This document shows positions 28,133 to 58,808 of a stretch of 61,763 nucleotides of DNA, one piece after another. A program made the translations under genes and the position numbers. Source of the DNA: Candidatus Moraniibacteriota bacterium (GTDB lineage Bacteria; Patescibacteriota; Minisyncoccia; Moranbacterales; UBA2206); the NCBI GenBank assembly GCA_003543115.1, contig DPJH01000004.1, forward strand, positions 1-61,763, in the 5' to 3' direction. Numbering within the stretch: the first letter of the stretch is position 1; each line of letters starts with the position of its first letter. A model generated the notes under the pieces. That model was not told the origin of the DNA and made no database searches. It worked only from the letters and a program-made list of their open reading frames with translations.

Positions 28133-28210
28133 ATAATAGTTAAAAAGCCAACAAAATAATATGTTTGAAAGCTGATAAATAAATGCAAAAAGACAAAAAT
28201 ACTTTTCTGG

Positions 28211-28238
28211 CTAGCAACTATAAACTAAGAACTAAAAA
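28211..28238 (+). repeat. Four in-phase heptamers CTANNAA directly upstream of nrdR
   Basis: ctagcaa ctataaa ctaagaa ctaaaaa ends 8 nt before ATG 28247. Same unit as the right arms of the ribosomal-operon hairpins. Confidence 0.7.
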
Positions 28239-28246
28239 AATAATCT

Positions 28247-30909: not shown

Positions 30910-30989
30910 ATTTTTTTATATAAATTAAAATAAAAAGTAAATGTGTTTCTGCTCAAAGTTTGAAAAACGTTGAACAGAAAAGAAAAAAT

Positions 30990-37341: not shown

Positions 37342-37350
37342 TTAAATACT

Positions 37351-37428
37351 AATGTTCGCGAATGGGTAAAAAATGAATGCGAATGATCTATTTCGGATAC
37401 ATTTGTTTAAACATTAGCGACAATTTGC
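37351..37428 (+). repeat. TCGCGAAT...GCGACAAT leader element (family 2)
   Basis: aatgttcgcgaatggg...gaatgcgaatg...acattagcgacaatttgc, ending 5 nt before the rpsG ATG. Confidence 0.5.
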
Positions 37429-37432
37429 ATAT

Positions 37433-46024: not shown

Positions 46025-47218
46025 ATGGCAGCAGCACAATTTGAAAGAACCAAACCTCATGTAAACGTCGGCACTATCGGACACGTTGATCATGGGAAAA
46101 CAACTCTAACAGCAGCTATCCTCCATGTGTTGGCTTTTAAAGGCCAAGCAAAGGAAAAAGGGATTGATGAAATTGACAAAGCTCCTGAAGAAAAGGAACG
46201 CGGAATCACTATTGCAACCGCTCACTGTGAGTATGAATCAGAAAAGAGACATTACGCTCATGTGGATTGTCCGGGACATGCTGACTACATCAAAAACATG
46301 ATTACTGGTGCTGCTCAAATGGATGGCGCTATCTTGGTTGTGGCTGCAACCGATGGTCCTATGCCGCAAACCAGAGAACACATTCTTCTTGCAAAACAAG
46401 TGGGCGTGCCTGAAATCGTAGTTTTCCTTAATAAAGTTGATATGGTGGACGATGAAGAGTTGGTTGAATTGGTTGAAGCTGAAGTAAGAGAACTGCTTAC
46501 AAAATATGAATTTGATGGAGATAACGCTAAAATTATCCGTGGTTCAGCCTTGAAGGCTCTTGAATCTAAATCTGCTGATGAAGATGCGGCTAAACCAGTC
46601 TTGGATTTGATTGCTGCTATTGACGAAAAGATTCCAGATCCGGTTCGTGAAACTGATAAGCCATTCTTATTGCCAATTGAAGATATTTTTTCAATTGAAG
46701 GTCGTGGAACGGTAGTAACAGGAAGAATTGAAAGAGGAACAATTAGCATTAATGAAGAAATTGAAATTGTTGGTATTAGACCAACTGCAAAAACTGTAGT
46801 AACAGGCATTGAAATGTTTAATAAATCTCTTTCTGAAGGAAGAGCCGGAGATAATGCAGGACTTCTTCTTCGGGGTATTAAGAAAGAAGATGTAGAAAGA
46901 GGTCAAGTTCTTGCAAAAACCGGATCAATTACCCCACACACTGAATTTGAAGGAGAAGTATATATTCTAACCAAGGAAGAAGGTGGAAGACATACCCCAT
47001 TCTTCAAGGGTTACAAGCCTCAATTCTATGTTAGAACAACTGATGTAACAGGAGAAGTTTTTCTTCCAGAAGGAACTGAAATGGTAATGCCAGGAGATAC
47101 GATTAATTTCAATGTTAAACTTGGAGCTCCTGTGGCTATGGAAGAAGGAATGAGATTCGCAATTCGAGAAGGAGGCAGAACAGTTGGAGCTGGAGTAGTT
47201 ACTAAAATCATAAAATAG
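46025..47218 (+). CDS. tuf: Elongation factor Tu
   Basis: [34 protein letters not shown] 46025 preferred over TTG 45986. Confidence 0.97.
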
Positions 47219-47317
47219 GTTATTCTTTGAGCCGCTTAATCAAAAAACTTGACATAAGCGGCTTTATAGAGTAAATTTTATAAATACACTAAATAAAGAA
47301 AATTTTTCATTAAAAAG

Positions 47318-47644
47318 ATGATAAAAAAGGAAGAAGAAGCAAAATCTAGAATTAGGATAAAGATCAGAGCTTATGATCATAAGATTATCGATCAATCAGC
47401 AAAACAAATTGTTGAAACGGCAGAAAGATCTGGAGCTACAATTACCGGACCTGTTCCGCTTCCTACTGAAATCAGAAAGTTTACTGTAAACAAATCAACT
47501 TTTGTTCACAAGGATGCAAGAGATCAGTATGAAATGAGAATGCATAAGAGAATTATTGACATTTGGAGTCCAACACCAAAAACAATTGATAGCTTGACCA
47601 ATTTAGATTTACCAGCCGGAGTTGATATAGAGATAAAGATGTAG
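47318..47644 (+). CDS. rpsJ: 30S ribosomal protein S10
   Basis: [27 protein letters not shown]...GPVPLPT. Confidence 0.95.
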
Positions 47645-47878
47645 TTCGCCGATTGGCGGAAGAAATAAATAAAACAACTAGTTAAAGTCCCGAATGCTCG
47701 GGATACTCAACCAGAAAAGTTTGATCGGGTAATATATAAGCCCTATGACTAAAATAACTGGCTTGTAGAGACTCGGTTTTTTATTTGCTCAGAAGTTTTA
47801 TAAAAAAGAAATTCAAATAGAAAGTATTAAATAGATATCGATCACATTCATTGATTGTGAGGTTTATAAAAAAAGAAT

Positions 47879-48442
47879 ATGGGAAAATTCATATTAGGAA
47901 AAAAACTTGGAATGACAACTATATTTAATGAAAAAAGCGAGGCACAGAATGTGACATTGGTTGAATGTGCAGCAAAAGTTTCTGATGTTAGAAATATAGA
48001 AAAAGATGGATATAATGCAGTTCAGGTTGCGATAGAAAAAACAAAAAATAAGACTGTAAAGAAAGAATTTAGAATTGAAAATACTGATGTAAAAATTGGA
48101 GATGAAGTGAGTGTAGATATTTTTGCAGTTGGTGATGAGGTGAATGTGACTGGTCTTGGAAAAGCTAAAGGTTTTCAAGGAGTGGTAAAGAGACATGGAT
48201 TTGGCGGAGGAAGAGCTACTCATGGAAATAAGCATGCGCTTCGCGCTCCTGGATCAATTGGATCAGGCTATCCGGAACATGTTTTGAAAGGCAAGAGAAT
48301 GGCGGGAAGAATGGGAGGAAAAAGAGTTACTAACAAGAATATTAAAATAGTTTTAATAGATAAAGAAAAAAATTTGATGGCGCTTAAAGGAGCTGTTCCT
48401 GGAGTGCCGGGTGCTGTAATTGAGATTTATACGGTTAAATAA
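47879..48442 (+). CDS. rplC: 50S ribosomal protein L3
   Basis: ILGKKLGMTTIF...; GKGFQGVVKRHGF. Confidence 0.93.
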   Translation: MGKFILGKKLGMTTIFNEKSEAQNVTLVECAAKVSDVRNIEKDGYNAVQVAIEKTKNKTVKKEFRIENTDVKIGDEVSVDIFAVGDEVNVTGLGKAKGFQGVVKRHGFGGGRATHGNKHALRAPGSIGSGYPEHVLKGKRMAGRMGGKRVTNKNIKIVLIDKEKNLMALKGAVPGVPGAVIEIYTVK

Positions 48443-48447
48443 AAAAA

Positions 48448-49083
48448 ATGGCAAAGGTTAAATTATACAACACACAAGGAAAAGAAGTAAAGGAGGTAGA
48501 TCTATCTGACAAAGTTTTTGGGTTACCTAAAAATGATGATTTGGTTCATCAAGTATTTGTTTCTCTTGGAGCTAATCAAAGACAAGTTTTGGCTCATACA
48601 AAAACCAGAGGAGAGAGAGCTGGGTCTGGAATCAAACCATGGAAACAAAAGGGAACAGGAAGAGCTCGAGTAGGATCTGTACGAACTCCAACCTGGAGGG
48701 GTGGAGGTATAGCCTTCGGTCCCACAAAGGAAAGAAATTTCAAAAAGAAAATCAATAAGAAGATGAATGCTAAGGCCATTATGACTGTGCTCAGTGCTAA
48801 ATTAAGAGAAGGAGAAATGATTGTCTTAGACAAATTAGCGCTAAAGGATAATAAGACCAAGGAAATGGCACAGGTTTTGAAAAGTCTTCCTGTGAAGGGA
48901 AGGATGTTAGTGAGTTTTTCTTCTGAAGAAAGAGAGATGCGCCGCTACAGCAGAAATATTGAAAATGTAAACAATATTTTAGTGGAAAGATTGAATGTAT
49001 TGGATATGTTGAATAATAAAAACTTGATTATTTCTTATGATTCAATCAAATATTTAGAAAAAAAATATCAAGTTAACGCATAA
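48448..49083 (+). CDS. rplD: 50S ribosomal protein L4
   Basis: KPWKQKGTGRARVGSVRTPTWRGGGIAFGP. Confidence 0.95.
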   Translation: MAKVKLYNTQGKEVKEVDLSDKVFGLPKNDDLVHQVFVSLGANQRQVLAHTKTRGERAGSGIKPWKQKGTGRARVGSVRTPTWRGGGIAFGPTKERNFKKKINKKMNAKAIMTVLSAKLREGEMIVLDKLALKDNKTKEMAQVLKSLPVKGRMLVSFSSEEREMRRYSRNIENVNNILVERLNVLDMLNNKNLIISYDSIKYLEKKYQVNA

Positions 49084-49092
49084 TAAAACGAA

Positions 49093-49428
49093 ATGAAACA
49101 GACAAGTAAAAAAGTGAATAAGGTTAAAGGAACTGAAGCAAATAGCATCGCATACAGAATTTTAATTGAACCCATCATTACGGAAGCTGCCAGTCTTGCT
49201 ATTGAAATGAACAAGTATACTTTTAAAGTGGCGGACAATGCTGATAAAATTCAAATCAAGAAGGCAATAGAGGATTTATACAAAGTAAAGGTTATAGGAG
49301 TTAATACTTCTAACAGAAAAAGAAAACCGGTTAGTTATGGGAGAACTCCTGGATTTAAGGCTGGAAGCAAGAAGGCTATAGTAACATTAAAAGAAGGTGA
49401 TTCAATAGAATTATTTAAAGGAGCATAA
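49093..49428 (+). CDS. rplW: 50S ribosomal protein L23
   Basis: ILIEPIITEAAS...KYTFKV...A.K.QIKKAIEDLYKVKV, and operon position. Confidence 0.9.
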   Translation: MKQTSKKVNKVKGTEANSIAYRILIEPIITEAASLAIEMNKYTFKVADNADKIQIKKAIEDLYKVKVIGVNTSNRKRKPVSYGRTPGFKAGSKKAIVTLKEGDSIELFKGA

Positions 49429-49434
49429 AAGAAA

Positions 49435-49503
49435 GTTGGTAGTTGGTAGTTGATAGTTGGTAGAAAGAAAAGTTCTATAAACTACAAACTAAAAACTAAG
49501 AAC
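49435..49503 (+). repeat. Heptamer-repeat inverted hairpin (rplW-rplB spacer)
   Basis: Left arm gttggtagttggtagttgatagttggtag, right arm ctacaaactaaaaactaagaac. 17 of 22 positions pair by hand. Confidence 0.7.
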
Positions 49504-49514
49504 GAAATAAGAAA

Positions 49515-50348
49515 ATGGCAATTAAAGTATATAAAAAGAATAACGCTGGAAGAAGGAATATGTCGATTGTAAAATCGGCTGATGTTTCCAATAAAAAACC
49601 AGAGAAAGCACTTCTTGCTCCCATGAAAAGCAAGGCTGGTAGGTCTCATGGAAAAATTTCTGTGCGCCATCAGGGTGGCGGAGCCAAGAGACGTTATAGA
49701 ATAATTGATTTTAGACAAGATAAATTTGATATTCCTGGAAAAATTGCAGCACTCGAAAGAGATCCGAATCGTTCTTCTTTCATCGCTTTAGTGCATTATA
49801 AGGATGGAGAAAAGCGCTATATTGTTGCTTCAGAGGGCATGAGGGCTGGCGTGGAAATTTTAGCTTCAACCAAGGCTCCAGTCAAACTGGGAAATAGAAC
49901 GCAAATAAAGAACATTCCAACCGGAACTATTATCTCCAATCTAGAGCTTTTTCCTGGAAAAGGTGGCCAGATCGTACGAAGCGCAGGATCGGGGGCAATT
50001 TTAACCGCAGTAGATGAAAAAACCGCTCAAGTAAAGATGCCATCAGGAGAAATTAGACTCGTAAGTAATGAATGTTATGCTACAATAGGACAGGTGAGCA
50101 ATTTTGAACATAACACTATAAATATAGGTAAGGCTGGTAGAAAAAGGCATATGGGAGTTCGTCCTGGAGTAAGAGGAACCGTAATGAATCCAGTAGATCA
50201 TCCACATGGAGGAGGAGAAGGACGTCAGGGAATTGGACTTAAACATCCGAAGACTCCTTGGGGCAAGCCGGCTCTTGGAAAGAAAACTAGAAAGAAAAAG
50301 AGATACAGCAATAAGTTTATAATCAAGCGAAGACAAAAGAGAAAATAA
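49515..50348 (+). CDS. rplB: 50S ribosomal protein L2
   Basis: GRRNMSIV...RHQGGGAKRRYRIIDF...MNPVDHPHGGGEGR. Confidence 0.97.
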   Translation: MAIKVYKKNNAGRRNMSIVKSADVSNKKPEKALLAPMKSKAGRSHGKISVRHQGGGAKRRYRIIDFRQDKFDIPGKIAALERDPNRSSFIALVHYKDGEKRYIVASEGMRAGVEILASTKAPVKLGNRTQIKNIPTGTIISNLELFPGKGGQIVRSAGSGAILTAVDEKTAQVKMPSGEIRLVSNECYATIGQVSNFEHNTINIGKAGRKRHMGVRPGVRGTVMNPVDHPHGGGEGRQGIGLKHPKTPWGKPALGKKTRKKKRYSNKFIIKRRQKRK

Positions 50349-50354
50349 TTTAAA

Positions 50355-50420
50355 AGTTTATAGTTGGTGGTTGGTAGTTTGTAGAATGAACTACGAACTA
50401 AAAACTGCAAACCAAGAACT
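50355..50420 (+). repeat. Heptamer-repeat inverted hairpin (rplB-rpsS spacer)
   Basis: agtttatagttggtggttggtagtttgtag-aatga-actacgaactaaaaactgcaaaccaagaact. 30-nt arms with 21 Watson-Crick and 4 G-U pairs by hand. Confidence 0.75.
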
Positions 50421-50426
50421 AATAAG

Positions 50427-50768
50427 ATGACAAGAAGTTTAAAGAAAGGTCCATATGTGGACAATAGATTAATAAAGAAAATTCAAAACAAGCCGGCTGG
50501 CGATAAATCAGTTGTGAATATTTGGGCTAGGGCGAGTGTTATTTCTCCTGAAATGGTTGGGTTTACTTTTGGAGTTCATAATGGAAGAAAACATATCCCG
50601 GTCTTTGTCACTGAAGAAATGGTTGGTCATAAATTTGGAGAATTTTCTCCGACTCGAACCTTCTATAAACATGGAGGTAAAATGCAGAAAGAAATTGAAC
50701 AGAATGCCAAACAAAAAGAATTAGATGCTGCCAAGGCTGCTAAAGCTGGTGGTTCTACTAAGAAATAA
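50427..50768 (+). CDS. rpsS: 30S ribosomal protein S19 (with K/A-rich C-terminal tail)
   Basis: SLKKGPYVD...[33 protein letters not shown]. Confidence 0.95.
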
Positions 50769-50792
50769 AGCTATTATATAAGATAAACTATC

Positions 50793-51362
50793 ATGAAAGT
50801 ATCAGCAAAATTAAACAATTTAAGAATGCCCAATCGAAAGGTAAAATTAGTAGCCGATCTTATTATTGGAATGGATGTTGCGGACGCTATTAATCAGCTG
50901 GATGTTGTTGCAAAAAAAAGCAGTCCTTTCATGGTAAAATTATTGAACAGTGCCATTGCTAACGGAGAAAATAATTTTGGAATCGATAGAGATAATATGT
51001 ATGTTTTTGATGTTATTGTTAAAGAAGGAATAACACTAAAAAGATGGATGCCAAAAGCTTACGGCAGGGCTACTCCAATCAGAAAAAGATCCTCACAAAT
51101 TGAAATAGTTATTGAAGAAAGAGAAGAAGGAAAAAATAGAAAAACTCAGGATCAATTAGAAAAAGAAAAGAAAGCCAGAATTGCTGCGAAGAAAAAAATA
51201 GAAAAAGAGGCGGCTAAGGAAAGCGAGGTTGAGAAGGAAGAGGTAGCAGAAGGAAGTGTGAAGGAAGTGAAGAAAAAAGAAAAAGCGGGGGTGAAAAAAG
51301 ATGCAGCTGCTCCTAACGCCGGATGGGCTAACAAAATTTTCAGAAGAAAATCAGGAATGTAA
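50793..51362 (+). CDS. rplV: 50S ribosomal protein L22 (with K/E-rich C-terminal extension of about 70 aa)
   Basis: LRMPNRKVKLVADLIIGMDVADAI.QL and operon position. Confidence 0.92.
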   Translation: MKVSAKLNNLRMPNRKVKLVADLIIGMDVADAINQLDVVAKKSSPFMVKLLNSAIANGENNFGIDRDNMYVFDVIVKEGITLKRWMPKAYGRATPIRKRSSQIEIVIEEREEGKNRKTQDQLEKEKKARIAAKKKIEKEAAKESEVEKEEVAEGSVKEVKKKEKAGVKKDAAAPNAGWANKIFRRKSGM

Positions 51363-51368
51363 TTAAAA

Positions 51369-51428
51369 TAGGTTTATGGATAATAGTTTATAGAAAAACT
51401 ATAAGCTACGAGCTAAAAACTAAGAACT
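51369..51428 (+). repeat. Heptamer-repeat inverted hairpin (rplV-rpsC spacer)
   Basis: taggtttatggataatagtttatag-aaaaa-ctataagctacgagctaaaaactaagaact. Confidence 0.7.
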
Positions 51429-51438
51429 AATAAAGATT

Positions 51439-52098
51439 ATGGGAAAAAAAGTTAATCCAATTGGACTTCGAATCGGAATCACAAATACATGGAAATCAAA
51501 ATGGTTTGGAGGAAAAAAGGAGTATAAGAACAACTTAAGACAAGATATTGAACTTAGGCAAGCAATATGCAAAAAATGGAAAAATGCTGCTATTGCTGAG
51601 GTTGAAATTGAAAGATCAACTGCTATGATCAAAGTGATTGTAAAAACTGCCAGACCAGGTGTTCTTATTGGAAGAGGCGGAAGCGGAGTTGAAGATATGC
51701 AGACTTTTGTAAAAAATAATTTTTTTAAACAGAAAAAAACTGCGTTGAAAATAGAAGTTCAGGAAGTTAAGAATTTTGAAGAAAATGCATCCCTTATTGC
51801 TCAAAATATTGCAGAGCAGTTAGAAAAGAGAATCCCTTTCAGAAGAGCTATGAAATCCATGCTTGATCAGGTTTCTAAAAACACTGCCATTAAAGGAATT
51901 AAAATCGAAATGTCAGGACGTTTAGGTGGGGCAGAAATGGCGAGAAGGGAATGGTCGAATAAGGGAACATTGCCATTGCATACTCTTCGAGCCAATATTG
52001 ATTTTGCCAGGGCTACTGCCTATACGACATATGGAACATTGGGAGTGAAGGTGTGGCTATATAAAGGAGAAGTTTTTAATAAGGAGAATAAGAAATAA
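51439..52098 (+). CDS. rpsC: 30S ribosomal protein S3
   Basis: MGKKVNPIGLRIGI...KH domain...GRLGGAEMAR. Confidence 0.96.
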   Translation: MGKKVNPIGLRIGITNTWKSKWFGGKKEYKNNLRQDIELRQAICKKWKNAAIAEVEIERSTAMIKVIVKTARPGVLIGRGGSGVEDMQTFVKNNFFKQKKTALKIEVQEVKNFEENASLIAQNIAEQLEKRIPFRRAMKSMLDQVSKNTAIKGIKIEMSGRLGGAEMARREWSNKGTLPLHTLRANIDFARATAYTTYGTLGVKVWLYKGEVFNKENKK

Positions 52099-52127
52099 TA
52101 AACATAGATTTTAGATAGAAAAAGCAT

Positions 52128-52544
52128 ATGTTAATGCCAAAAAAAGTAAAACATAGAAAAGTTCAAAGAGGAGGAAGAATTCGCGGCAATTCGAGTCGAG
52201 GAAATGATGTGAGTTTTGGAAGCTATGGACTTAAATCAGTTGAAACAGGACTTGTTTCTGCCCGCCAAATTGAGTCGGCAAGACGGGCTATGACGAGATA
52301 TGTCCAACGTGGTGGAAAAATTTGGATTAGAATATTTCCAGATAAATCAGTGACGAAAAAAGGATCGGAAGTTCCAATGGGTAAAGGAAAAGGGACGGTG
52401 GATCATTTCGTGGCCGTTGTGAAGCCCGGACGCATTATGTTTGAAATGGATGGAGTGAAAAGAGATGTAGCCAAGAAAGCTATGGAGTTGGCATCCTATA
52501 AATTATGCGTTAAATCAAAATTTGTTTCCAAGGAACAAGAATAA
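52128..52544 (+). CDS. rplP: 50S ribosomal protein L16
   Basis: [15 protein letters not shown]...[13 protein letters not shown]...[10 protein letters not shown]. Confidence 0.96.
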
Positions 52545-52569
52545 ATAAAAGTAAAGTTTTTGCAATATT

Positions 52570-52755
52570 ATGAAAACAAAGGAAATAAGAGAGAAAAATA
52601 AAGAAGAGCTAAAAAAGCTTTTGAATGAAAAGAGAGAGGCTGTCCGAAAGTCAAGATTTGATGTCGCTGCAAAACAAGTGAAAAATATTCGAGAAATGAG
52701 AAATAATAAGAGAGATATAGCAAAAATCTTAACTATTCTTAAAGAAACTAAATAG
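52570..52755 (+). CDS. rpmC: 50S ribosomal protein L29
   Basis: Small helical protein (KEIREKNKEELKKLL.EKREA..K.RF) at the expected operon position. Confidence 0.88.
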   Translation: MKTKEIREKNKEELKKLLNEKREAVRKSRFDVAAKQVKNIREMRNNKRDIAKILTILKETK

Positions 52756-52764
52756 TTTAAAAAA

Positions 52765-53028
52765 ATGGAAAATAATTTAGAAAATATGCCAGAGGATAAG
52801 AAGAAAGTAATTATCAAGAAAAAAGGAATCGTTGTTAGCGATAAAATGACTAAGACGGTAGTTGTGGCTGTTGATAGTTTGAAGACTCATCCAAAATATA
52901 AAAAGAAATATATTTCTACTAAGAAATATAAGGCTCATGACGCCGAGGGAAAATATAAGACAGGAGATGAGGTGGAAATAGTTCCATGCAAACCAATGAG
53001 CAAGGATAAATGTTATAAAGTAATATAG
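52765..53028 (+). CDS. rpsQ: 30S ribosomal protein S17
   Basis: KKKGIVVSDKMTKTVVVAVDSLKTHPKYKK...KAHD....GD.V.I..C.P.SK.K. Confidence 0.93.
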   Translation: MENNLENMPEDKKKVIIKKKGIVVSDKMTKTVVVAVDSLKTHPKYKKKYISTKKYKAHDAEGKYKTGDEVEIVPCKPMSKDKCYKVI

Positions 53029-53029
53029 A

Positions 53030-53101
53030 TTAGTTTGCGGTTGGTAGTTTATAGTTTGTAATAAATACTAGCCATAAGCCACTAACCATAAACCATAAAC
53101 T
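53030..53101 (+). repeat. Heptamer-repeat inverted hairpin (rpsQ-rplN spacer)
   Basis: tagtttgcggttggtagtttatagtttgta ... tagccataagccactaaccataaaccataaacta. Confidence 0.65.
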
Positions 53102-53107
53102 AAAAAA

Positions 53108-53473
53108 ATGATACAAGCAGAGACAAGATTAAAATCAGCTGATAACACAGGAGCAAAAATTATTGAGTGCTTCAAGGTTTTGGGTGGTTCACGAAGAAGA
53201 TATGCTCAGGTTGGAGACATAATTGTGGCCTCAGTTAAATCGGCTGAACCAAGAGGTATGGTAAAAAAAGGAGATAAGGTACGAGCGGTTATCGTAAGGC
53301 AATCTAAGGAGGTTAGAAGAAAAGACGGAACTTATATAAGATTTGATGAAAATGCAGCGGTTATTGTGGATGGAAAAGAGCCGAAGGGAACCAGGGTTTT
53401 TGGTCCAATTGCCAGAGAAATAAGAGAAAAAGGGTTTAATAAAATAATTTCACTTGCTCCTGAAGTATTATAA
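53108..53473 (+). CDS. rplN: 50S ribosomal protein L14
   Basis: [17 protein letters not shown]...GDIIVASVK. Confidence 0.96.
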
Positions 53474-53581
53474 TGATATAAATCGCGAATTAATCCTGAA
53501 TTTGATCAAAAATAGTCGCGAATAAAAATTTAAAGGATATTAGTTGAATAAATTAGAGATTAATTAGAGACATATAACATT
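53474..53581 (+). repeat. TCGCGAAT-motif spacer (family 2) between rplN and rplX
   Basis: aaatcgcgaattaatc ... aatagtcgcgaataaaaa; 108-nt spacer. Confidence 0.45.
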
Positions 53582-53887
53582 ATGAAAATCAAGAAGAACG
53601 ATCAAGTTAAGATACTGGCGGGTAAAGACCGAGGGAAAACGGGCAAAGTTTTGAAAGTTTTGTCAGCTGAAGATAAGATTATAGTAGAGGGTGTTAATAT
53701 TGTGAAAAAACATATCAGACCAAGGAAAGAAGGCGAGCAAGGTCAGAGAGTGGAGATTCCTGGAAAAATCAATACATCCAATGTTATGCTAGTTTGTCCT
53801 AAATGCGGAAAGGCTTCCCGGATAGAATACAAGGTCACCGAGAAAAGTAAATTTAGAATTTGTAAAAAATGTAAAGCAGAATTATAA
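53582..53887 (+). CDS. rplX: 50S ribosomal protein L24 (with C-terminal CxxC...CxxC ribbon)
   Basis: MKIKKNDQVKILAGKDRGKTGKVLKV...; CPKCG...CKKC. Confidence 0.93.
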   Translation: MKIKKNDQVKILAGKDRGKTGKVLKVLSAEDKIIVEGVNIVKKHIRPRKEGEQGQRVEIPGKINTSNVMLVCPKCGKASRIEYKVTEKSKFRICKKCKAEL

Positions 53888-53894
53888 GAAAAAT

Positions 53895-54440
53895 ATGTAC
53901 AAATCAATTAAGGAAAAATATAATAAGGATGTTGTTTCAAAGATGAAAGAACAATTCGGTTTCAAGAGCGCCTTGCAAGTTCCAAGGATAGAGAAGGTTG
54001 TTATTAATGTCGGAATTGGGAAATTCATTAAAGATTCTGCTTTGGTGGAGGACGTTAAAAAGACTATTGTTATGATTGCTGGACAAAAACCTGTTATGAC
54101 ACAAGCAAAAAAGTCAATTGCTGGTTTCAAAATTCGTGAAGGACAAGAGATTGGCATGAGAGCTACGCTACGAGGAAAAAGAAAATGGGATTTCATTGAG
54201 AAGTTAGTGTCTGTCGCCATACCTCGTGTAAGAGACTTCCAAGGAATAAAAGATTCAGCTGTGGATGCTGGTGGAAATTTCAATTTTGGAATTAAGGAAC
54301 ATACTATATTTTCTGAAATTATGCCTGAGAGCGTAAAAAATATTGTTGGGTTTCAAGTAAATATTGTAACGACTGCAAAAAATAGAGAAGAAGGATTAGC
54401 TTTATTTAAATTGATGGGCTTTCCTTTAAAAAAAGATTAA
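53895..54440 (+). CDS. rplE: 50S ribosomal protein L5
   Basis: ...VPRIEKVVINVGIG... and ...GNFNFGIKEH.IF.EI. Confidence 0.95.
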   Translation: MYKSIKEKYNKDVVSKMKEQFGFKSALQVPRIEKVVINVGIGKFIKDSALVEDVKKTIVMIAGQKPVMTQAKKSIAGFKIREGQEIGMRATLRGKRKWDFIEKLVSVAIPRVRDFQGIKDSAVDAGGNFNFGIKEHTIFSEIMPESVKNIVGFQVNIVTTAKNREEGLALFKLMGFPLKKD

Positions 54441-54476
54441 GTTAATAAAAGCATTAGAATTAAGGTTTAAAATAAT

Positions 54477-54662
54477 ATGGCAAAAAAATCTGTTGAAGCT
54501 AGAGCTCGAAAGACACCAAAATTTTCAACACGAATCGTGAGAAGATGTTGGAGATGCGGGAGAAAACATGGTTATATGCGGGCTTTTGATATTTGTAGAA
54601 TCTGTTTTCGAGAATTAGCAAGTACAGGTCAAATCCCAGGAGTAAAGAAATCTAGTTGGTAA
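54477..54662 (+). CDS. rpsN: 30S ribosomal protein S14 type Z (zinc-binding, 61 aa)
   Basis: [26 protein letters not shown]...IPGVKKSSW. Confidence 0.95.
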
Positions 54663-54738
54663 ATTATAAATGTTAATCGTTATCAGTCAATGAACTCAAA
54701 AGGACATTGGCAGTGAACCAATAACTAAGCGAAAAAAT

Positions 54739-55143
54739 ATGTTAGATCCTATAGCAGAAATGTTAACAAGAATAAGAAATGCGCAAACAGCTGGACATAG
54801 TGATGTTGTTTTTGCAGCATCTAAATTGAAAATGGCTATTTCGAATATTCTTGAGAAAGAAGGTTTTGTTGAGTCTGTTTCGAAAGAAAAGCAGGAATCT
54901 TTTGAAAATATAAGAATAGCGCTGAAATATTATAAACTTTCTAATACTAAGAAATTGCCAGCGATAAAAGGATTGAGAAGGATTAGCAAACAAGGACAGA
55001 GAATTTATGTTAAAAATAAAGAAATTAGAAGCGTAAAGAATAATTTCGGTATCTCTATTATTTCTACTCCAAAAGGAGTGATGACCGGTTTTGAAGCAAG
55101 AAAGCTTGGCTTGGGAGGAGAAGTTATTTGTGAAATTTGGTAA
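54739..55143 (+). CDS. rpsH: 30S ribosomal protein S8
   Basis: DPIAEMLTRIRNA...GGEVICEIW. Confidence 0.95.
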   Translation: MLDPIAEMLTRIRNAQTAGHSDVVFAASKLKMAISNILEKEGFVESVSKEKQESFENIRIALKYYKLSNTKKLPAIKGLRRISKQGQRIYVKNKEIRSVKNNFGISIISTPKGVMTGFEARKLGLGGEVICEIW

Positions 55144-55148
55144 TTTAA

Positions 55149-55216
55149 TAGTTTATAGTTGGTTGTGAGTAGTTTCTTGATATATCTAAAAACTACAAAC
55201 TAAGAACCAAAATCTA
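55149..55216 (+). repeat. Heptamer-repeat inverted hairpin (rpsH-rplF spacer)
   Basis: tagtttatagttggttgtgagtagttt ... ctaaaaactacaaactaagaaccaaaatcta. Confidence 0.7.
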
Positions 55217-55221
55217 ATAAA

Positions 55222-55761
55222 ATGAGTAGAATAGGTAAAAAAATAATAATCATACCAGAGGGAGTAAATGTTAGTCTTACAAAAGACAATGTTGAAGTTA
55301 ATGGTTCAAAGGGAACACTTGGTTTCGTTCATCACAAGGATGTCTTAATTGAAATGAATGACAAAGAAATTTCTATAAAAAATGTAGGAAAAACAAAAAA
55401 ATCTAATGCTGTTTGGGGTCTGACCAGAGCAATTATCAACAATATGATAGTTGGCGTTACAGAGGGTTATGCAAAAAAATTGGAACTTCAAGGAGTAGGT
55501 TTTCGTATGAATGTAGCTGGAAAGAAAATAAATTTAGCTTTAGGGTTTTCTCACCCAGTGGTTGTAGATGTTCCAGCTAAGCTGGAGGCTAAAATTGAAG
55601 AGGGCGCATTGATTATCAGCGGTATTGATAAACAGGCTGTAGGTCAATTTGCAGCTGAAGTGAGAGGATTAAAGCCGGTTGAGCCATATAAAGGAAAGGG
55701 ATTTAGATATGCAGGAGAAGTTGTAAGAAGAAAAGCTGGAAAGAAAGCTGCATCCAAATAA
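55222..55761 (+). CDS. rplF: 50S ribosomal protein L6
   Basis: MSRIGKKIIIIPEGV.V...LQGVGFR...EPYKGKGFRY.GE.V. Confidence 0.95.
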   Translation: MSRIGKKIIIIPEGVNVSLTKDNVEVNGSKGTLGFVHHKDVLIEMNDKEISIKNVGKTKKSNAVWGLTRAIINNMIVGVTEGYAKKLELQGVGFRMNVAGKKINLALGFSHPVVVDVPAKLEAKIEEGALIISGIDKQAVGQFAAEVRGLKPVEPYKGKGFRYAGEVVRRKAGKKAASK

Positions 55762-55787
55762 AGTAAATTAGAAGATTATAAAATACT

Positions 55788-56135
55788 ATGAAAAAATTAA
55801 GCAGAAATCAAATAAGATTACACAGAAAAAGAAGAATCAGAGCTAAAATTTCTGGAACTAATGAAGTTCCGAGATTGGCTGTTTTTCGCAGTTTAAGAAA
55901 TGTCAGTGCTCAGGTTATTGATGATATTTCTGGCAAGACCATTGCATCTGCTAGTCTTTTTGAAGTAAAGGGTAAGAACACGGTAGTAGGAGCGAAAGAA
56001 GTGGGAAAGGTTGTAGCAGAAAAATGCAAAACTGCAAAAATCGAAAAGGTTGTCTTTGATAGATCAGGATATAAATACCATGGGAAAGTAAAGGCAGTGG
56101 CTGATGGAGCAAGAGAGGCAGGGTTAAAATTTTAA
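55788..56135 (+). CDS. rplR: 50S ribosomal protein L18
   Basis: RHRKRRIRAKISGT...PRLAVFRSL.......DD..GKT...AS...FDR.GYKYHGKVKA.ADGAREAGL.F. Confidence 0.95.
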   Translation: MKKLSRNQIRLHRKRRIRAKISGTNEVPRLAVFRSLRNVSAQVIDDISGKTIASASLFEVKGKNTVVGAKEVGKVVAEKCKTAKIEKVVFDRSGYKYHGKVKAVADGAREAGLKF

Positions 56136-56136
56136 A

Positions 56137-56258
56137 TAGTTTGTAGTTTGCCCGCCTATCGGTAGGCAGGCCTGCCCGCCGGTAGGCAGGTGGTTTATGG
56201 AAACATCAAGCCCCGCTACATAATCTGCTTACTAAAAAATAAGAACTAAGGACTAAAT
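56137..56258 (+). repeat. Heptamer-repeat spacer (rplR-rpsE) with an embedded GC-rich palindromic element at 56151..56190
   Basis: tagtttgtagtttg | cccgcctatcggtaggcagg cctgcccgccggtaggcagg | tggtttatgg ... ctacataatctgcttactaaaaaataagaactaaggactaaata. The GC block includes the 12-bp perfect palindrome ggcaggcctgcc and shares cccgcct...aggcagg with the pth insert. Confidence 0.75.
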
Positions 56259-56261
56259 AAA

Positions 56262-56774
56262 ATGGCAAGAGACAATAAAAATTTTAAAGGAAAAAAGGAA
56301 AAGCCTGAATTTGATCAGAAGCTTCTTGATTTGGCGAGAGTAACTCGTGTGGTTAAAGGAGGAAGAAGATTTCGATTCAGGGCTACTTTAGTAATTGGAA
56401 ACAGGAAAAGCAAGGTTGGGGTAGGAGTTGGGAAAGGAGCGGATGTATCTGATGCCATTAGAAAGGCTTTTGATGATGCAAAAAAGAATTTAGTTACGAT
56501 CAAGATGACTAAGAACACGATTGCTCATGATATTTATTACAAATCAAGAAGCGCTAAGATAATCCTTAAGCCAGCACTTGAAGGAAATGGAATTATTGCT
56601 GGTGGAGCGATCAGAACAGTGGTTGAATTTGCCGGAATCAAGGATGTTGTTTCAAAGTCCTTAGGAGCTTCAAATAAATTGAGTGTGGCTCGAGCAACCG
56701 TAGAAGCTTTATCAACCCTGAATCAAGCTCGAAGCAGAAAAGAGAGGATCGGCGCGGGCAAGGACGCAAGCTAG
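56262..56774 (+). CDS. rpsE: 30S ribosomal protein S5
   Basis: ...VTRVVKGGRRFRFRATLVIGN...GVGVGKG..V..AI.KA. Confidence 0.95.
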   Translation: MARDNKNFKGKKEKPEFDQKLLDLARVTRVVKGGRRFRFRATLVIGNRKSKVGVGVGKGADVSDAIRKAFDDAKKNLVTIKMTKNTIAHDIYYKSRSAKIILKPALEGNGIIAGGAIRTVVEFAGIKDVVSKSLGASNKLSVARATVEALSTLNQARSRKERIGAGKDAS

Positions 56775-56848
56775 TTTTGATGAAAGACAATCTTAGATTA
56801 AAAATATTTGAATAAATAAGTAGGATATAATTGAATAATAAATAGCAT

Positions 56849-57286
56849 ATGCAGATAAATACTCTAAAAATTAAAACTCCCAAAAAGAAAAGAAAAACTA
56901 TCGGACGTGGCGGGAAAAAGGGAACGTACTCAGGAAAAGGAAACAAAGGTCAAAAAGCTAGAAGTGGGGCAAAGGTGGATCCGCTTTTTGAAGGAGGAAG
57001 ATCAACTTTGATTGATCATATGAAGAAAAAAAGAGGATTCAAATCTATCGTTAAGAAAGCAACTACTGTGGATATCGTTAAATTAGAAGAATATTTCAAG
57101 GATAATGATGTGATAACGATTGAATCTTTGGTGAAAGCGGAAATTATTAGAAAAATCCAAGGAACGGCAAGAGTAAAAATTCTTGGATCTGGATCTATTC
57201 AAAAGAAATTGACAATCGCAAAAGGTATTCAAATTAGCGCTTCTGCCAAAAAGGCTATCGAGGCGGCTGGCGGTAAAGTTGAATAA
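56849..57286 (+). CDS. rplO: 50S ribosomal protein L15
   Basis: GRGGKKGTYSGKGNKGQKARSG....FEGG. Directly follows rpsE with no rpmD between them. Confidence 0.93.
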   Translation: MQINTLKIKTPKKKRKTIGRGGKKGTYSGKGNKGQKARSGAKVDPLFEGGRSTLIDHMKKKRGFKSIVKKATTVDIVKLEEYFKDNDVITIESLVKAEIIRKIQGTARVKILGSGSIQKKLTIAKGIQISASAKKAIEAAGGKVE

Positions 57287-57442
57287 TTGCTATAACACAG
57301 GCTGTAAAAGGGTGGCGCAAGTCCCCTTTTTGCTTTTTTATCCGATGAATATTCCTATTTTCTAAATATGGATATAGATGTTATAATGAATATGCTATTA
57401 ATATTTTTAAACGATAAATCTTCACATTTTTGATGGATGTGA

Positions 57443-58735
57443 ATGGAAGGAATAATAAATTATATGTTTGAGAAAATATCGCAGATTTTCAAGGTAAAAG
57501 AATTACGTAATAAAATTTTATTCATTATTGCAATTCTTGTTATTTTTCGATTGATTGCGGCAATTCCTATACCTGGAGTTAATCAGGATCAATTGAAATC
57601 TTTTTTTGAGAATAATCAGTTTTTTGGATTGTTGAATCTTTTTTCCGGAGGAGGCCTTAGCAGCATTTCTATTGTTATGTTGGGAGTGGGACCATACATA
57701 ACTTCTTCGATCATTATGCAACTTTTAACGATGATTTTTCCGAGATTAGAACAGATCTATAAAGAAGAAGGAGAAGCTGGAAGACAGAAATTTAATCAGT
57801 GGACACGCTGGGCAACAGTTCCATTGGCTGCCATGCAAACTTTTGGAATGATTTCTCTTCTTCGGTCGCAAAATATTTTAGGACAAATTTCTAATTTTGA
57901 AATGTTTTCTATTATATCCGTAGCTGTAGCCGGAACGATTTTATTGATGTGGCTCGGAGAGCTTATCACTGAAAAGAAGATAGGAAATGGAGTTTCTATT
58001 ATAATTTTTGCTGGAATTGTTGCCGGTCTTCCATCAAGTTTGTCCCAGCTTTCTGCTACTTTTGATTCATCGCAGCTTTTTACTTATATCATACTGTTGG
58101 CGGTGGTTATTGCCGCTATTTCCGGTATAGTTACTATAACCGAAGGACAGAGAAATATTCCAGTTTCTTATGCTAAGAGAATTCGTGGTAATAAGATGTA
58201 TGGGGGATCATCCACTCATCTTCCACTTCGCGTCAATCAAGCCGGGGTGATTCCTATCATCTTTGCTATGTCAATTATGCTCTTTCCCGGGATGATTGCT
58301 AATTTTTTAGCAACATCATCAAATGAAGTTGTAGCAAATATCGCCAGAAGCGTAGGAAATGTTTTCCAAAATCAGATATTTTATGGTTCAGCTTATTTTA
58401 TTTTAGTAGTAGCTTTCACATATTTTTACACATCAGTTGTCTTCGATCCTCATAAAATATCAGAAAGCCTTCAAAAGCAGGGAGGATATATTCCTGGAAT
58501 CAGACCAGGAAAGAATACGGCGGAATATCTGTATAGAATTATTAATCGTATAACTTTATCAGGCGCATTATTTCTAGGAATCATTGCGGTTTTGCCTTTC
58601 ATTATACAAGGATTTTCAAGTATTAAATCGATATCTATTGGAGGAACCGGGCTTCTTATTGTAGTCTCTGTAGTTATTGAAACAGTAAAGCAGATCGAAG
58701 GCCAATTGGTTATGAGAGATTATGACGGTTTCTAA
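57443..58735 (+). CDS. secY: Preprotein translocase subunit SecY
   Basis: ELRNKILF..A.L..FR....IP.PGV; 10 TM pattern; GG.IPGIRPGK.T. Start could instead be ATG 57464. Confidence 0.95.
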   Translation: MEGIINYMFEKISQIFKVKELRNKILFIIAILVIFRLIAAIPIPGVNQDQLKSFFENNQFFGLLNLFSGGGLSSISIVMLGVGPYITSSIIMQLLTMIFPRLEQIYKEEGEAGRQKFNQWTRWATVPLAAMQTFGMISLLRSQNILGQISNFEMFSIISVAVAGTILLMWLGELITEKKIGNGVSIIIFAGIVAGLPSSLSQLSATFDSSQLFTYIILLAVVIAAISGIVTITEGQRNIPVSYAKRIRGNKMYGGSSTHLPLRVNQAGVIPIIFAMSIMLFPGMIANFLATSSNEVVANIARSVGNVFQNQIFYGSAYFILVVAFTYFYTSVVFDPHKISESLQKQGGYIPGIRPGKNTAEYLYRIINRITLSGALFLGIIAVLPFIIQGFSSIKSISIGGTGLLIVVSVVIETVKQIEGQLVMRDYDGF

Positions 58736-58740
58736 CATGC

Positions 58741-58808
58741 AAATATTCGCGAACATCGAGTGAATTTATTCGAATTATTTGCTTAATAATTGGCGATAAT
58801 TTGAGAGT
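58741..58808 (+). repeat. TCGCGAA...GGCGATAAT leader element (family 2) upstream of adk
   Basis: aaatattcgcgaacatcgagtgaatttattcgaatt...aattggcgataatttg. Confidence 0.45.

Follow-up and report, generated by a model that had tools for sequence, protein, structure and literature searches.

Within the S10/spc ribosomal-protein operon of the window (the whole 61.7-kb stretch of DNA analysed here, from an uncultured member of the Moranbacteria, Patescibacteria), an ~80-nt element is present as alignable copies in five spacers (rplW-rplB, rplB-rpsS, rplV-rpsC, rpsQ-rplN and rpsH-rplF), and a sixth, decayed copy interrupted by a GC-rich palindrome lies in the rplR-rpsE spacer (Table 1). Copies run from three to four TAGTTKG units through a short loop to three to four MAAACTA units and a conserved A-rich tail adjoining the ATG, with the consensus TTTAATAGTTTA TAGTTGG TAGTTNA TAGTTTG TAG / loop / CTA NAAACTA CAAACTA AAAACCA AGAACTAATAAA; the orientation is strict, the G/T-rich arm coming first in every case. 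A full-length alignment of eight copies from four genomes has a mean identity of 72%, loop and tail included. Because the copies have in common a non-repetitive left flank (TTTAAWAGTTTA), loop (GTAGAAAA..TTCTAC) and tail (CCAAGAACTAAT), as well as a unit number fixed at three to four per arm, they align end to end. The most conserved columns are UAG, UU and their spacing, while the arms pair with a systematic G.A mismatch and just 25% of variable positions are paired. Three independent public assemblies agree at 99.97-100% identity over 8-21 kb, indicating that the repeat sequence is not an assembly artefact.

Table 1. Copies of the heptamer element and the palindrome nested in one of them
Feature	Position	Strand	MFE (kcal/mol)	z	Covariance model, bits (+ / -)	Remarks
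rplW-rplB copy	49429..49514	+	-19.8	-5.4	82.7 / 37.5	ATG at 49515; per7 0.66; left arm AAGTTGG TAGTTGG TAGTTGA TAGTTGG TAG; 7-nt loop; right arm CTA TAAACTA CAAACTA AAAACTA AGAAC, then A-rich tail up to ATG
rplB-rpsS copy	50349..50426	+	-22.9	-5.3	84.4 / 52.6	24 pairs, including 4 G-U
rplV-rpsC copy	51363..51438	+	-14.2	-4.0	56.5 / 27.2	left arm partly degraded
rpsQ-rplN copy	53029..53107	+	-21.2	-3.5	73.1 / 45.7	right-arm variant CCATAAA/CCACTAA
rpsH-rplF copy	55144..55221	+		-0.8	75.3	eroded, yet matched by the model
rplR-rpsE decayed copy	56136..56261	+			no match	only terminal heptamers ATAGTTTGTAGTTTG ... CTAAAAAATAAGAACTAAGGACTAAATAAA remain; assigned from sequence
GC-rich palindrome dimer, 44 nt	about 56149..56192	.				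nested in rplR-rpsE hairpin; inverted repeat; ~20-nt unit CCYGCC-N8-GGCAGG

A preliminary description of this DNA had placed heptamer arms in these six spacers, and a pattern search bore this out: TAGTTKGTAGTT (at most two mismatches) gave 37 matches, nearly all within 49.4-56.2 kb, against 8.3 +/- 2.8 in shuffled sequence, with none of 100 shuffles reaching 37. Identity to the base 7 nt downstream (per7) is 0.55-0.66 in five element spacers and 0.19-0.41 in all remaining intergenic regions of the window. The statement that such a hairpin occurs in all spacers of more than about 60 nt proved false, as neither rplN-rplX (53474-53581, 108 nt; per7 0.32, z -1.9) nor rpsN-rpsH (54663-54738, 76 nt; per7 0.39, z -2.0) has heptamer arms, and the architecture attributed to six spacers holds for the five alignable copies, with only the terminal heptamers left in rplR-rpsE. 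Run over the 61.7 kb with filters off, a covariance model matched the five intact copies only (56-84 bits), each scoring 25-45 bits higher on the sense than on the antisense strand. The element occupies 6 of 20 S10/spc junctions but 0 of 70 elsewhere in the window (p = 6e-5). Copy-to-copy identity is 0.54-0.76 inside the window and 0.51-0.75 between genomes; with copies inside it no more alike than those across genomes, nothing points to a recent burst.

Predicted folds were more stable than shuffled controls at rplW-rplB, rplB-rpsS, rplV-rpsC and rpsQ-rplN (z -3.5 to -5.4) but not at rpsH-rplF, and the computed rplB-rpsS fold is close to an earlier hand pairing of 21 Watson-Crick and 4 G-U pairs. 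The rplR-rpsE spacer folds at -43.3 kcal/mol, dominated by the nested palindrome dimer. Covariation between the arms is not significant: six pairs had changes in both partners, and 108 of 500 shuffles reach that count. The arms are also missing from most of the corresponding spacers in the closest relatives. On these two results, two of three preset tests go against a conserved functional RNA, and Rfam returned no family match to the element.

Very small spacers or repeat hairpins of unrelated sequence take the element's place at these junctions in the closest relatives. The rplB-rpsS junction is 1 nt long in four of them (L002, L008, L013 and L026), which identifies the copy in the window as an insertion. 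L001 carries an unrelated ~105-nt palindromic element at rplW-rplB, rplB-rpsS, rpsH-rplF and rplR-rpsE, and L013 a TACGAAT-type hairpin at six junctions. L013 also has a copy of our element at rplF-rplR, where the window and L002 share a conserved 26-nt spacer; this junction is not orthologous to that of the rplW-rplB copy in the window. Retention in place is seen at rpsQ-rplN, where a related right arm is kept in L001 and L002, and at rpsH-rplF, whose copy is orthologous to better-preserved ones in L002 and the metagenome contig L200 (z -4.7 and -4.9), the spacer being 0.72 identical between the window and L002 against 0.48 at 4-fold sites. At rplR-rpsE, L002 has a copy decayed in like manner. 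With four of the six junctions showing no positional conservation in the closest relatives, the element is, to judge from these alignments, dispersed and not conserved in place. Its consensus and periodic G.A mismatches nonetheless persist across genomes with saturated synonymous sites, suggesting that some constraint may act on them.

Among 81 Patescibacteria operons, a period of 7 or 14 dominates spacer repeats (26 of 142 and 14 of 117 spacers, where less than one was expected), mostly as inverted arms. Period-7 palindromes of many different sequences fill ribosomal-protein spacers across the group, which makes this a general phenomenon. TAGTT hairpins are spread over many phyla in metagenome contigs: of 122 TAGTT-type inverted arrays, on contigs of GC 0.31-0.70, just two lie inside ORFs, with 56 between co-directional, 20 between convergent and 8 between divergent genes. 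About 10 matches are on HIP1-rich, cyanobacterium-like contigs, at least one of which (L127) has its hairpin in the S10/spc operon at rpsQ-rplN; L185, of similar GC, has one at rplR-rpsE.

We think it somewhat probable that the copies in the six spacers belong to a single family of small dispersed palindromic repeats, REP/MITE-like in kind, and the best reading is that the element behaves as a small dispersed repeat and not as a conserved regulatory RNA. A self-propagating repeat family, one option of the preliminary description, gains support from copies that represent one element, lie at non-orthologous junctions and are absent or replaced at the same junctions in relatives. Copies would have entered intercistronic gaps that were very short at first, persisting or decaying there until, over evolution, other heptamer-periodic palindromes took their place. 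Each would be co-transcribed with the operon mRNA and adopt an imperfect hairpin in which purine-rich internal loops separate 5-bp UAGUU/AACUA helices every 7 nt. Between the upstream stop codon and the stem base lie 1-15 nt, and 6-17 nt separate the stem from the following ATG, in agreement with the earlier remark that right arms end shortly before start codons; stop and start would thus stay spatially close. Looping out of the inserted sequence in this manner probably explains its tolerance, and a terminating ribosome could open the basal helix. The element would also supply its own A-rich leader (CYAAGAACYAAT...), free of a Shine-Dalgarno sequence, which fits the genome's mode of translation start: the motif is lacking genome-wide, as had been noted for these starts, although a weak AAGGA stands 9 nt before the rpsE ATG. 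Hairpin and leader together would make the element tolerable in a tightly coupled operon, and if it is also of advantage, for example by shielding the upstream message from 3' exonucleases or by serving as a processing site, that role would be a secondary one for which a substitute could be found. Against dispersal, the ~60 ORFs of the window, a small sample at 61 kb, include no transposase, RAYT or other mobilising gene, and the copies show no recognisable target-site duplication, since the heptamers themselves contain TAA and TAG. Nor does purely selfish random insertion predict all six copies in the S10/spc operon; this confinement hints at operon-specific selection, local copying or transcription dependence.

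The copies might instead be selected intercistronic RNA devices, either RNase III-type processing or stabilising sites, of which the phage T7 early region is an example, or obligatory translational couplers, keeping the initiation region of the next cistron concealed until the one upstream has been translated. Stable sense-strand hairpins (more stable than the antisense fold in five of six copies), strict orientation, placement of the stems close to stop and start, and the strong enrichment in the S10/spc operon all fit such a role, as do an orthologous rpsH-rplF copy kept in three genomes above the neutral level, with pairing intact in L002 and L200, and a family consensus that outlasts neutral expectation. 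We nevertheless regard it as doubtful, given the lack of significant covariation, the four junctions without positional conservation, the several relatives that manage with 1-nt spacers and the eroded rpsH-rplF copy of the window; across all 44 period-7 spacers the sense strand has no advantage (19 versus 24, p = 0.57). Local microsatellite growth, in which replication slippage and intrastrand template switching (quasi-palindrome correction) build each hairpin within its own spacer and nothing moves between sites, is less probable still. Heptanucleotides are the most abundant long prokaryotic simple sequence repeats, with slippage as the proposed cause (Mrazek 2007, as cited in PMC4679880 and PMC4692102), such hairpins are built from many unrelated heptamers in relatives, and many metagenome examples, L140 among them, have perfectly mirrored arms, even in the order of variant units. 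But slippage does not account for a common flank, loop, tail and unit number or for the same element at different junctions in different genomes, and template switching would homogenise the arms to perfect complements, whereas the systematic G.A mismatch is retained.

The UAG triplets bound by HutP recur every 7 nt, as in its model RNA (UUUAGUU)3, and binding destabilises an adjacent stem (PMC2425495). By analogy, the left arm, (KKUAGUU)3-4, could be bound by an oligomeric protein of the HutP or TRAP kind that melts the hairpin and regulates translation of the next cistron; it has the same UAGUU core and period, and its UAG, UU and spacing are the best-conserved columns. We find this very unlikely: no HutP, TRAP or comparable protein is encoded among the ~60 ORFs of the window, the right arm is CUA-based, so that no second XAG-rich site follows past a 12-17 nt linker, and TAGTT hairpins occur in many phyla. 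Moreover, the corresponding junctions of relatives contain unrelated heptamers (TACGAAT, CATAACR, TTTAAAT), so a single sequence-specific protein could not account for the class as a whole. Transcription signals subdividing the operon (intrinsic terminators, attenuators or internal promoters) are the least credible explanation and are contradicted by the sequence. The hairpins are intergenic and T-rich sequence follows several on the antisense strand, but the stems are AT-rich and none is followed by a U-tract on the sense strand. Scans found 5 terminator sites against 5.3 expected and 41 promoter sites against 33 +/- 7, none of either overlapping a hairpin stem.

Cyanobacterial STRR repeats (Calothrix/Nostoc) are tandem heptanucleotides in intergenic DNA whose function is unknown. 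The comparison with them, made in the preliminary description, is supported by the evidence, although STRR have other unit sequences, are described as direct arrays and belong to a different phylum. STRR repeats are also cited in PMC4692102. That paired heptamer arms were undescribed was too strong a claim, for Xanthomonas genomes contain 70-75 pairs each of convergent GGGAATC heptamer arrays with stem-loop potential (Rehm et al. 2015, PMC4692102). Like our element, these are two nearby tandem arrays in opposite orientation, intergenic, mostly between co-directional genes near the end of the upstream one, mostly transcribed, and different in length and sequence among related species; unlike it, they are G-rich, quadruplex-capable, variable in length with as many as 14 units, and scattered through the whole genome of a high-GC proteobacterium (PMC4692102). 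Our element is AT-rich, its length is fixed and its loop and tail are defined; it has conserved periodic mismatches and strict sense orientation, and it fills whole intercistronic gaps, within the 61.7 kb only in the S10/spc operon. Paired inverted heptamer arrays were thus known already; in the literature we found none reported for Patescibacteria or as the filling of ribosomal-protein intercistronic gaps.

TAACTGA direct repeats of Beggiatoaceae, cyanobacteria and Bacteroidetes likewise lie a few nucleotides upstream of starts without a Shine-Dalgarno sequence, including sites inside ribosomal-protein operons, contain stop codons so that intergenic copies alone survive, and are suspected of a mobile origin for which no mechanism was found (MacGregor 2015, PMC4679880). 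They are direct repeats without predicted secondary structure, with one of 170 sets inverted (PMC4679880), whereas every copy here is a two-armed hairpin of a different heptamer. With HutP sites the element shares UAG at a 7-nt period and a UAGUU core beside a stem, there melted by the protein (Gopinath et al. 2008, PMC2425495). That system, however, requires HutP and has two XAG sites flanking a terminator (PMC2425495), and the window has no second site, terminator or HutP; the likeness illustrates a way in which such an array might function and does not make the element a member of that system.

REP and REPIN sequences are, like the element, small multi-copy extragenic palindromes downstream of coding regions, between co-directional or convergent genes, transcribed, with G-T pairs in their stems and coexisting species-specific families that are sometimes nested or intragenic (PMC3733652, PMC3116915). 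A REPIN, a ~100-nt hairpin of two inverted units, is of comparable size (Bertels and Rainey 2011, PMC3116915). REP units differ in being 20-40 bp long, with GC-rich stems of 6-13 bp and loops of 2-3 nt (Di Nocera et al. 2013, PMC3733652), and in carrying GTAG or CGTC as an unpaired terminal tag and being linked to RAYT transposases (PMC3733652, PMC3116915). In our element the arms are tandem heptamers, GTAG is part of each paired unit instead of forming a tag at the end, and there is no known RAYT.

The GC-rich palindrome within the rplR-rpsE hairpin is a small element of its own that inserted there. Its unit recurs at 12525-12577 as well as in L008, L022 and L038, and the pattern gave 18 matches versus 0.4 in shuffles. 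Since the 20-nt palindrome is nested in the heptamer element and in other elements, and lies in frame within pth, small palindromes evidently move in these genomes; the nested copy is more like a classical REP than is the heptamer hairpin around it.

Heptamer arms occupy six intercistronic spacers of the S10/spc operon, which spans 47.3-58.7 kb of the window from rpsJ to secY. In each, the run of TAGTTKG units, the short loop and the run of MAAACTA units reported in the preliminary description are all present. Five copies are intact (rplW-rplB, rplB-rpsS, rplV-rpsC, rpsQ-rplN and rpsH-rplF) and the sixth, at rplR-rpsE, is decayed. Every copy in the window is intercistronic, with arms of three to four heptamer units separated by 0-34 nt. 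Allowing at most two mismatches, TAGTTKGTAGTT matches the window 37 times, compared with 8.3 ± 2.8 matches in shuffled sequence, and nearly all of these fall within 49.4-56.2 kb. The fraction of bases identical to the base 7 nt downstream is likewise 0.55-0.66 in five of the six spacers versus 0.19-0.41 in ~60 other intergenic regions of the window (37% GC). This excess and this contrast indicate that the heptamer signal is not due to chance. Nor is the region an assembly artefact, since three independent public assemblies that encode an identical RplB match it at 99.97-100%; at that level of identity they are uninformative on unit-number polymorphism and compensatory change. The source is a Candidatus Moranbacteria (Moraniibacteriota, Patescibacteria) genome, and its RpsC shares 95% identity with proteins from Parcubacteria- or Moranbacteria-labelled MAGs.

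Period-7 arrays in the window and TAGTT-type arrays in S10/spc operons of non-Moranbacteria metagenome contigs
Feature	Sequence	Coordinates	Location
Period-7 array (TRF)	window	49434-49463	
Period-7 array (TRF)	window	49475-49507	
Period-7 array (TRF)	window	50361-50384	
Period-7 array (TRF)	window	51394-51430	
Period-7 array (TRF)	window	53072-53100	
Period-7 array (TRF)	window	55186-55217	
Period-7 array (TRF)	window	56231-56256	
Non-Moranbacteria TAGTT-type array	L127		rpsQ-rplN
Non-Moranbacteria TAGTT-type array	L185		rplR-rpsE
Non-Moranbacteria TAGTT-type array	L183		upstream of rpsJ

Within the window, all six copies lie in S10/spc, at 6 of its 20 junctions versus 0 of 70 elsewhere (p = 6e-5); for long co-directional spacers, the counts are 6 of 11 versus 0 of 35. 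The arms are not found in every spacer longer than about 60 nt, as had been claimed, because rplN-rplX (108 nt) and rpsN-rpsH (76 nt) are long and have none.

To these five intact copies we added one from rplF-rplR of the related operon L013, one from rpsH-rplF of L002, which with L001 is one of the two closest genomes, and one from rpsH-rplF of the metagenome contig L200. The eight copies align end to end over 94 columns at 72% mean identity, left flank, loop and A-rich tail included, with the consensus TTTAATAGTTTATAGTTGGTAGTTnATAGTTTGTAGnAAAAAAATTCTAnAAACTACAAACTAAAAACCAAGAACTAATAAA. Across this alignment, 89% of cells at core helix positions are paired. At the two variable positions of each heptamer only 25-50% of cells are paired, so the family conserves internal loops, mostly with G opposite A. 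Shifting the partner by 1-3 columns lowers the paired fraction from 76% to 23-49%, which confirms the register of arm-arm pairing. The arms show only weak signs of compensatory covariation: six pairs changed on both sides, a number equalled by 108 of 500 shuffles, and the covariation score was equalled by 13 of 500.

A covariance model built from this alignment, run over the whole window with filters off, recovered only the five intact copies (56-84 bits), with nothing further at E < 0.01. For each intact copy, the sense strand outscores the antisense by 25-45 bits. Over 1 Mb of related operons, strong matches were confined to L002 and L013, and weaker ones were found at rpsQ-rplN of L001 and L002, as well as in L033 and L035. 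Arm order is fixed, with the G/T-rich arm first in every case. Copies inside the window share 0.54-0.76 identity with one another versus 0.51-0.75 with those of other genomes (random, 0.50). Because similarity within the genome does not exceed that between genomes, the family is old, and a recent burst of copying is ruled out.

Four of the intact copies fold on the sense strand more stably than shuffled controls: rplW-rplB (-19.8 kcal/mol, z = -5.4), rplB-rpsS (-22.9 kcal/mol, z = -5.3), rplV-rpsC (-14.2 kcal/mol, z = -4.0) and rpsQ-rplN (-21.2 kcal/mol, z = -3.5). The hairpin claim thus survives this comparison at four spacers and fails at rpsH-rplF, whose sense fold (-11.3 kcal/mol, z = -0.8) is not below its shuffles. 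At rplR-rpsE, the -43.3 kcal/mol fold comes mostly from a nested GC-rich palindrome. The element fold is periodic, with 5-bp UAGUU/AACUA helices and a 2x2 internal loop every 7 nt. Stems begin 1-15 nt past the upstream stop codon (median 6) and finish 6-17 nt before the downstream ATG (median 11). Shine-Dalgarno (SD) sequences precede almost none of the window's genes, and the regions before start codons are simply A/U-rich.

The palindrome nested at rplR-rpsE is a dimer (56149-56192) of a ~20-nt GC-rich sequence of the CCTGCCTGCCGGCAGGCAGG type. Two 28-nt tandem units of the same type lie in frame inside the peptidyl-tRNA hydrolase gene (12519-12578), whose match to positions 1-170 of the 183-position Pfam profile is spread over residues 3-212. 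TAGTTT flanks both window sites. The palindrome also occurs in divergent Patescibacteria spacer elements (L008:1500, L022:2194, L038:8459 and 8794), with variants at rplW-rplB of L001 and rpsE-rplO of L004, and the pattern gave 18 matches versus 0.4 expected. It resembles a mobile REP-like palindrome of very small size.

We compared every spacer across 80 homologous operons. Synonymous sites are saturated even in L001 and L002 (4-fold identity to the window, 0.43-0.48), yet short spacers such as rpsC-rplP, rplP-rpmC and rplF-rplR are 0.86-1.00 identical to those of these two genomes. The hairpin junctions differ from these short spacers: in L001 and L002 the element is absent or replaced at rplW-rplB, rplB-rpsS and rplV-rpsC, and largely so at rpsQ-rplN. 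The rplB-rpsS spacer is 1 nt long in L002, L008, L013 and L026. TTTAAAT-type hairpins stand at rplW-rplB and rplV-rpsC of L002, and L001 has an unrelated ~105-nt palindrome (gcgaaaagcgc...ttcgtag) at rplW-rplB, rplB-rpsS, rplN-rplX, rpsH-rplF, rplF-rplR and rplR-rpsE. L013 has a ~130-nt TACGAAT-type hairpin at six junctions, together with a single TAGTTGG hairpin at rplF-rplR, where the window and L002 have a conserved 26-nt spacer. Apparent orthologous retention is limited to rpsH-rplF (window, L002 and L200) and rplR-rpsE (window and L002). Identity at rpsH-rplF is 0.72, the fold being kept in L002 (z = -4.7) and L200 (z = -4.9) and eroded in the window. Expansion across operons is uneven, occurring almost never at rplC-rplD, rpmC-rpsQ and rplX-rplE and often at other junctions.

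A conserved cis-regulatory leader or operator RNA for ribosomal proteins is not supported by orthologous position, by covariation or by curated families, as Rfam gave no family at gathering score in the window and none at E ≤ 1 in 47000-58000. Terminator and promoter functions are both rejected. The stems consist largely of A and T and lead into A-rich tails, and the listed terminator-like sites overlap no hairpin and are no more numerous than in shuffles. Listed promoter-like sites similarly overlap no hairpin stem, with counts not above shuffles. Stop codons in all three frames do not account for the 7-nt unit, since stop counts per frame in these AT-rich spacers are not above those of shuffles. 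A target-site duplication of the MITE kind would be masked, as the element is an inverted repeat throughout and the TAA beside both ends is indistinguishable from the TAA/TAG that the heptamers contain.

Among the long simple repeats of prokaryotes, heptanucleotides are the most frequent type, and polymerase slippage may be the cause (Mrazek 2007, as cited in PMC4679880). In Beggiatoaceae, cyanobacteria and Bacteroidetes, direct TAACTGA repeats lie immediately upstream of SD-less starts; translation genes are over-represented, sites within ribosomal operons are all internal, and the repeats have no predicted structure and are inverted in only 1 of 170 sets (MacGregor 2015, PMC4679880). Xanthomonas genomes have GGGAATC arrays, of which 70-75 pairs per genome are convergently inverted and stem-loop-capable; they are intergenic, near the end of the upstream gene, mostly transcribed and variable among species, and the authors remark that heptameric repeats are without detailed literature (Rehm 2015, PMC4692102). 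With these pairs the element shares tandem arrays of at least three units, two close inverted arrays forming a stem-loop, placement between co-directional genes and variability (among L001, L002, L013 and the window). The Xanthomonas arrays are genome-wide; in the 61.7 kb of the source genome analysed here, the element copies are all in one operon.

GTAG- and CGTC-tagged REPs (Di Nocera 2013, PMC3733652) resemble the element in their family behaviour and in their placement, which is after coding regions and between genes that are unidirectional or convergent. They differ in size: a REP unit is 20-40 bp long and has a short loop on a stem of 6-13 bp, as against ~80 nt and an interrupted stem of 24-30 positions in the element. 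They also differ in their unpaired terminal tag, since GTAG in the element recurs inside paired heptamers (TTG-GTAG-TTG). REPs and REPINs are associated with RAYT (Y1 transposase). Pfam scans of ~60 ORFs, all from the window, turned up nothing but housekeeping genes; a transposase, RAYT, HutP or TRAP was not among them. HutP binds (UUUAGUU)3 (Gopinath 2008, PMC2425495), and the left arm, UAG-UUGG-UAG-UUGG-UAG-UUGA-UAG, resembles its site of three XAG 4 nt apart and has the core and period of (UUUAGUU)3. The HutP site is followed past a 12-17 nt linker by a second XAG-rich site, whereas the right arm of the element is CUA-based with at most one AAG, and neither the flanked terminator nor the HutP protein of that system was found in the window. 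Our literature search found no description of such elements in Patescibacteria.

Period-7 palindromes are not limited to the TAGTT family. In 27 Moranbacteria operons, 142 spacers are 50 nt or longer, of which 26 have a local tandem period of 7 and 17 a period of 14 (~0.4 expected), with other periods in 0-9 spacers each; in 53 other Patescibacteria operons, period 7 is present in 14 of 117 spacers. The heptamers are mutually unrelated (AGGATTT/TAAATCT, AAAAGTA/ACTTTTA, TTTCAAT/AATTAGA, CATAACR, TACGAAT and others) and are mostly arranged as inverted arms. In each Patescibacteria genome (L001, L013, L020, L021, L069 and others) a multi-copy spacer element of its own predominates, in most cases a palindrome with a 7- or 14-nt period.

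A metagenome scan with TAGTTNNTAGTT...AACTANNAACTA gave matches on at least 120 contigs, all counts being lower bounds and not a census. Among the matches listed, nearly all are true arrays of 3-6 units per arm, on contigs with GC of 0.31-0.70. Only 2 of these 122 arrays lie in ORFs; 56 lie between co-directional, 20 between convergent and 8 between divergent genes, where they typically occupy the whole gap. At least four metagenome arrays are in S10/spc operons, including three outside the Moranbacteria (table). About 10 of the contigs among the matches listed are HIP1-rich and cyanobacterial-looking, and low-GC arrays adjoin ordinary genes (kup, proS, ybeY, gatC, atpF/atpH and cysN). Patescibacteria, Bacteroidota-like and cyanobacterium-like contigs are all represented among the matches.

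Together, these findings describe a discrete, oriented, multi-copy palindrome with heptamer-array arms that has been inserted into originally short gaps, comes and goes among relatives and is a member of a broad class of extragenic palindromes with a heptamer period. From the earlier interpretation, the option of a repeat family is supported, whereas that of a conserved regulatory hairpin gains no support. What is newly seen is an inverted heptamer palindrome of REP/MITE type in Patescibacteria, as a filler of gaps between ribosomal protein cistrons. Such an element would be co-transcribed and fold within the mRNA, looping out the insert and leaving stop and start roughly 10-30 nt apart via the stem base. 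A terminating ribosome may unwind the basal helix, and the A-rich tail, itself conserved, could serve as the SD-free leader used everywhere in this genome. These steps would explain why it is palindromic insertions that survive in a coupled operon.

The hairpins might instead be functional RNAs that act in processing, in stabilisation or as obligatory couplers. Over the 44 period-7 spacers, sense folds show no gain in stability over antisense folds (19 vs 24, p = 0.57), a result that speaks against RNA-level selection as a general signal; only the TAGTT family has a sense bias. The repeat reading, however, gives no explanation for the presence of all six copies in S10/spc, for the consensus and its G.A mismatches kept across saturated divergence, or for the 7-nt unit, and a functional RNA therefore stays alive as an unlikely but serious alternative. 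A wider proposal, which we consider a long shot, is that heptamer-periodic palindromes are general unrecognised intercistronic 'loop-out' modules of SD-independent bacteria, holding stop and start together for shunt-like ribosome passage. The 7-nt period would then reflect a HutP-like reader or a heptamer-specific DNA mechanism, and operon confinement, sense orientation and G.A mismatches would be functional.

If the repeat-family reading is correct, small palindromic repeats turn over even in the operon that is most conserved and tightly coupled in an ultra-small and streamlined Patescibacteria genome, and hairpin-forming insertions are one type that translational coupling can tolerate. A clean, bounded example and a much wider survey, in which 7 is the leading period of spacer repeats across 81 operons and TAGTT-type inverted arrays lie on contigs of 31-70% GC, bear on the old question of why seven, and of the role of heptamer arrays before SD-less starts. 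The elements inflate and diversify spacers at the locus most used for phylogenomic marker extraction, and are handy strain and lineage markers.

All the intercistronic repeat elements recognised in the window lie within translation-related operons. The rplN-rplX spacer (53474-53581) holds a different dispersed element, tgatataaatcgcgaat...attagagattaattagag, also found at rpsS-rplV (L003 and L013) and rplR-rpsE (L021). A third spacer family, cgcgaat...attcgaat...gcgacaat, is present at rpsL-rpsG in the str operon (37342-37432) and at secY-adk (58736-58808), as well as at rplR-rpsE in L007. The rpsN-rpsH hairpin spacer (54663-54738) is 0.89-0.91 identical to L001 and L002, versus 0.43-0.48 at 4-fold sites, and is kept in place in L001-L007, with a 47-nt loop insertion in L003 and L005. 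It is a candidate for a real regulatory RNA upstream of the S8 gene, with no Rfam match. The structured rpsJ-rplC spacer (47645-47878) is present in 28 of 28 Moranbacteria operons examined (median 164 nt) and has a conserved core, actagttaaagtcc-hairpin-ggatactcaac..., and a stem plus U-run at its end. It has no Rfam match at E ≤ 1 and resembles an attenuator placed between the S10 and L3 genes.

An array of right-arm units, AACTATAAACTAAGAACTAAAAAAATAATCT (28209-28246), stands alone directly before the nrdR start (28247) and has no left arm, and a similar sequence, AACTAAGAA, lies 11 nt upstream of the ATG at 6416. These are either leftovers of the element or a sign that its tail motif commonly precedes starts. 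Two adjacent paralogous TPR-repeat genes of 648 and 678 aa each follow a nearly identical upstream region of ~100 nt (…cgctgcttttgcaattttatggtataataaaa[t/c]caattaaaacaaacttaaaaaaatact; 21700-21815 and 23815-23930). The anaerobic ribonucleotide reductase NrdD appears split into a 708-aa ORF (28783-30909) and, after a 50-nt gap, a 96-aa ORF (30960-31250) that aligns with the final ~60 positions of the NRDD profile. As expected in CPR bacteria, rpmD (L30) is absent between rpsE and rplO (56775-56848).
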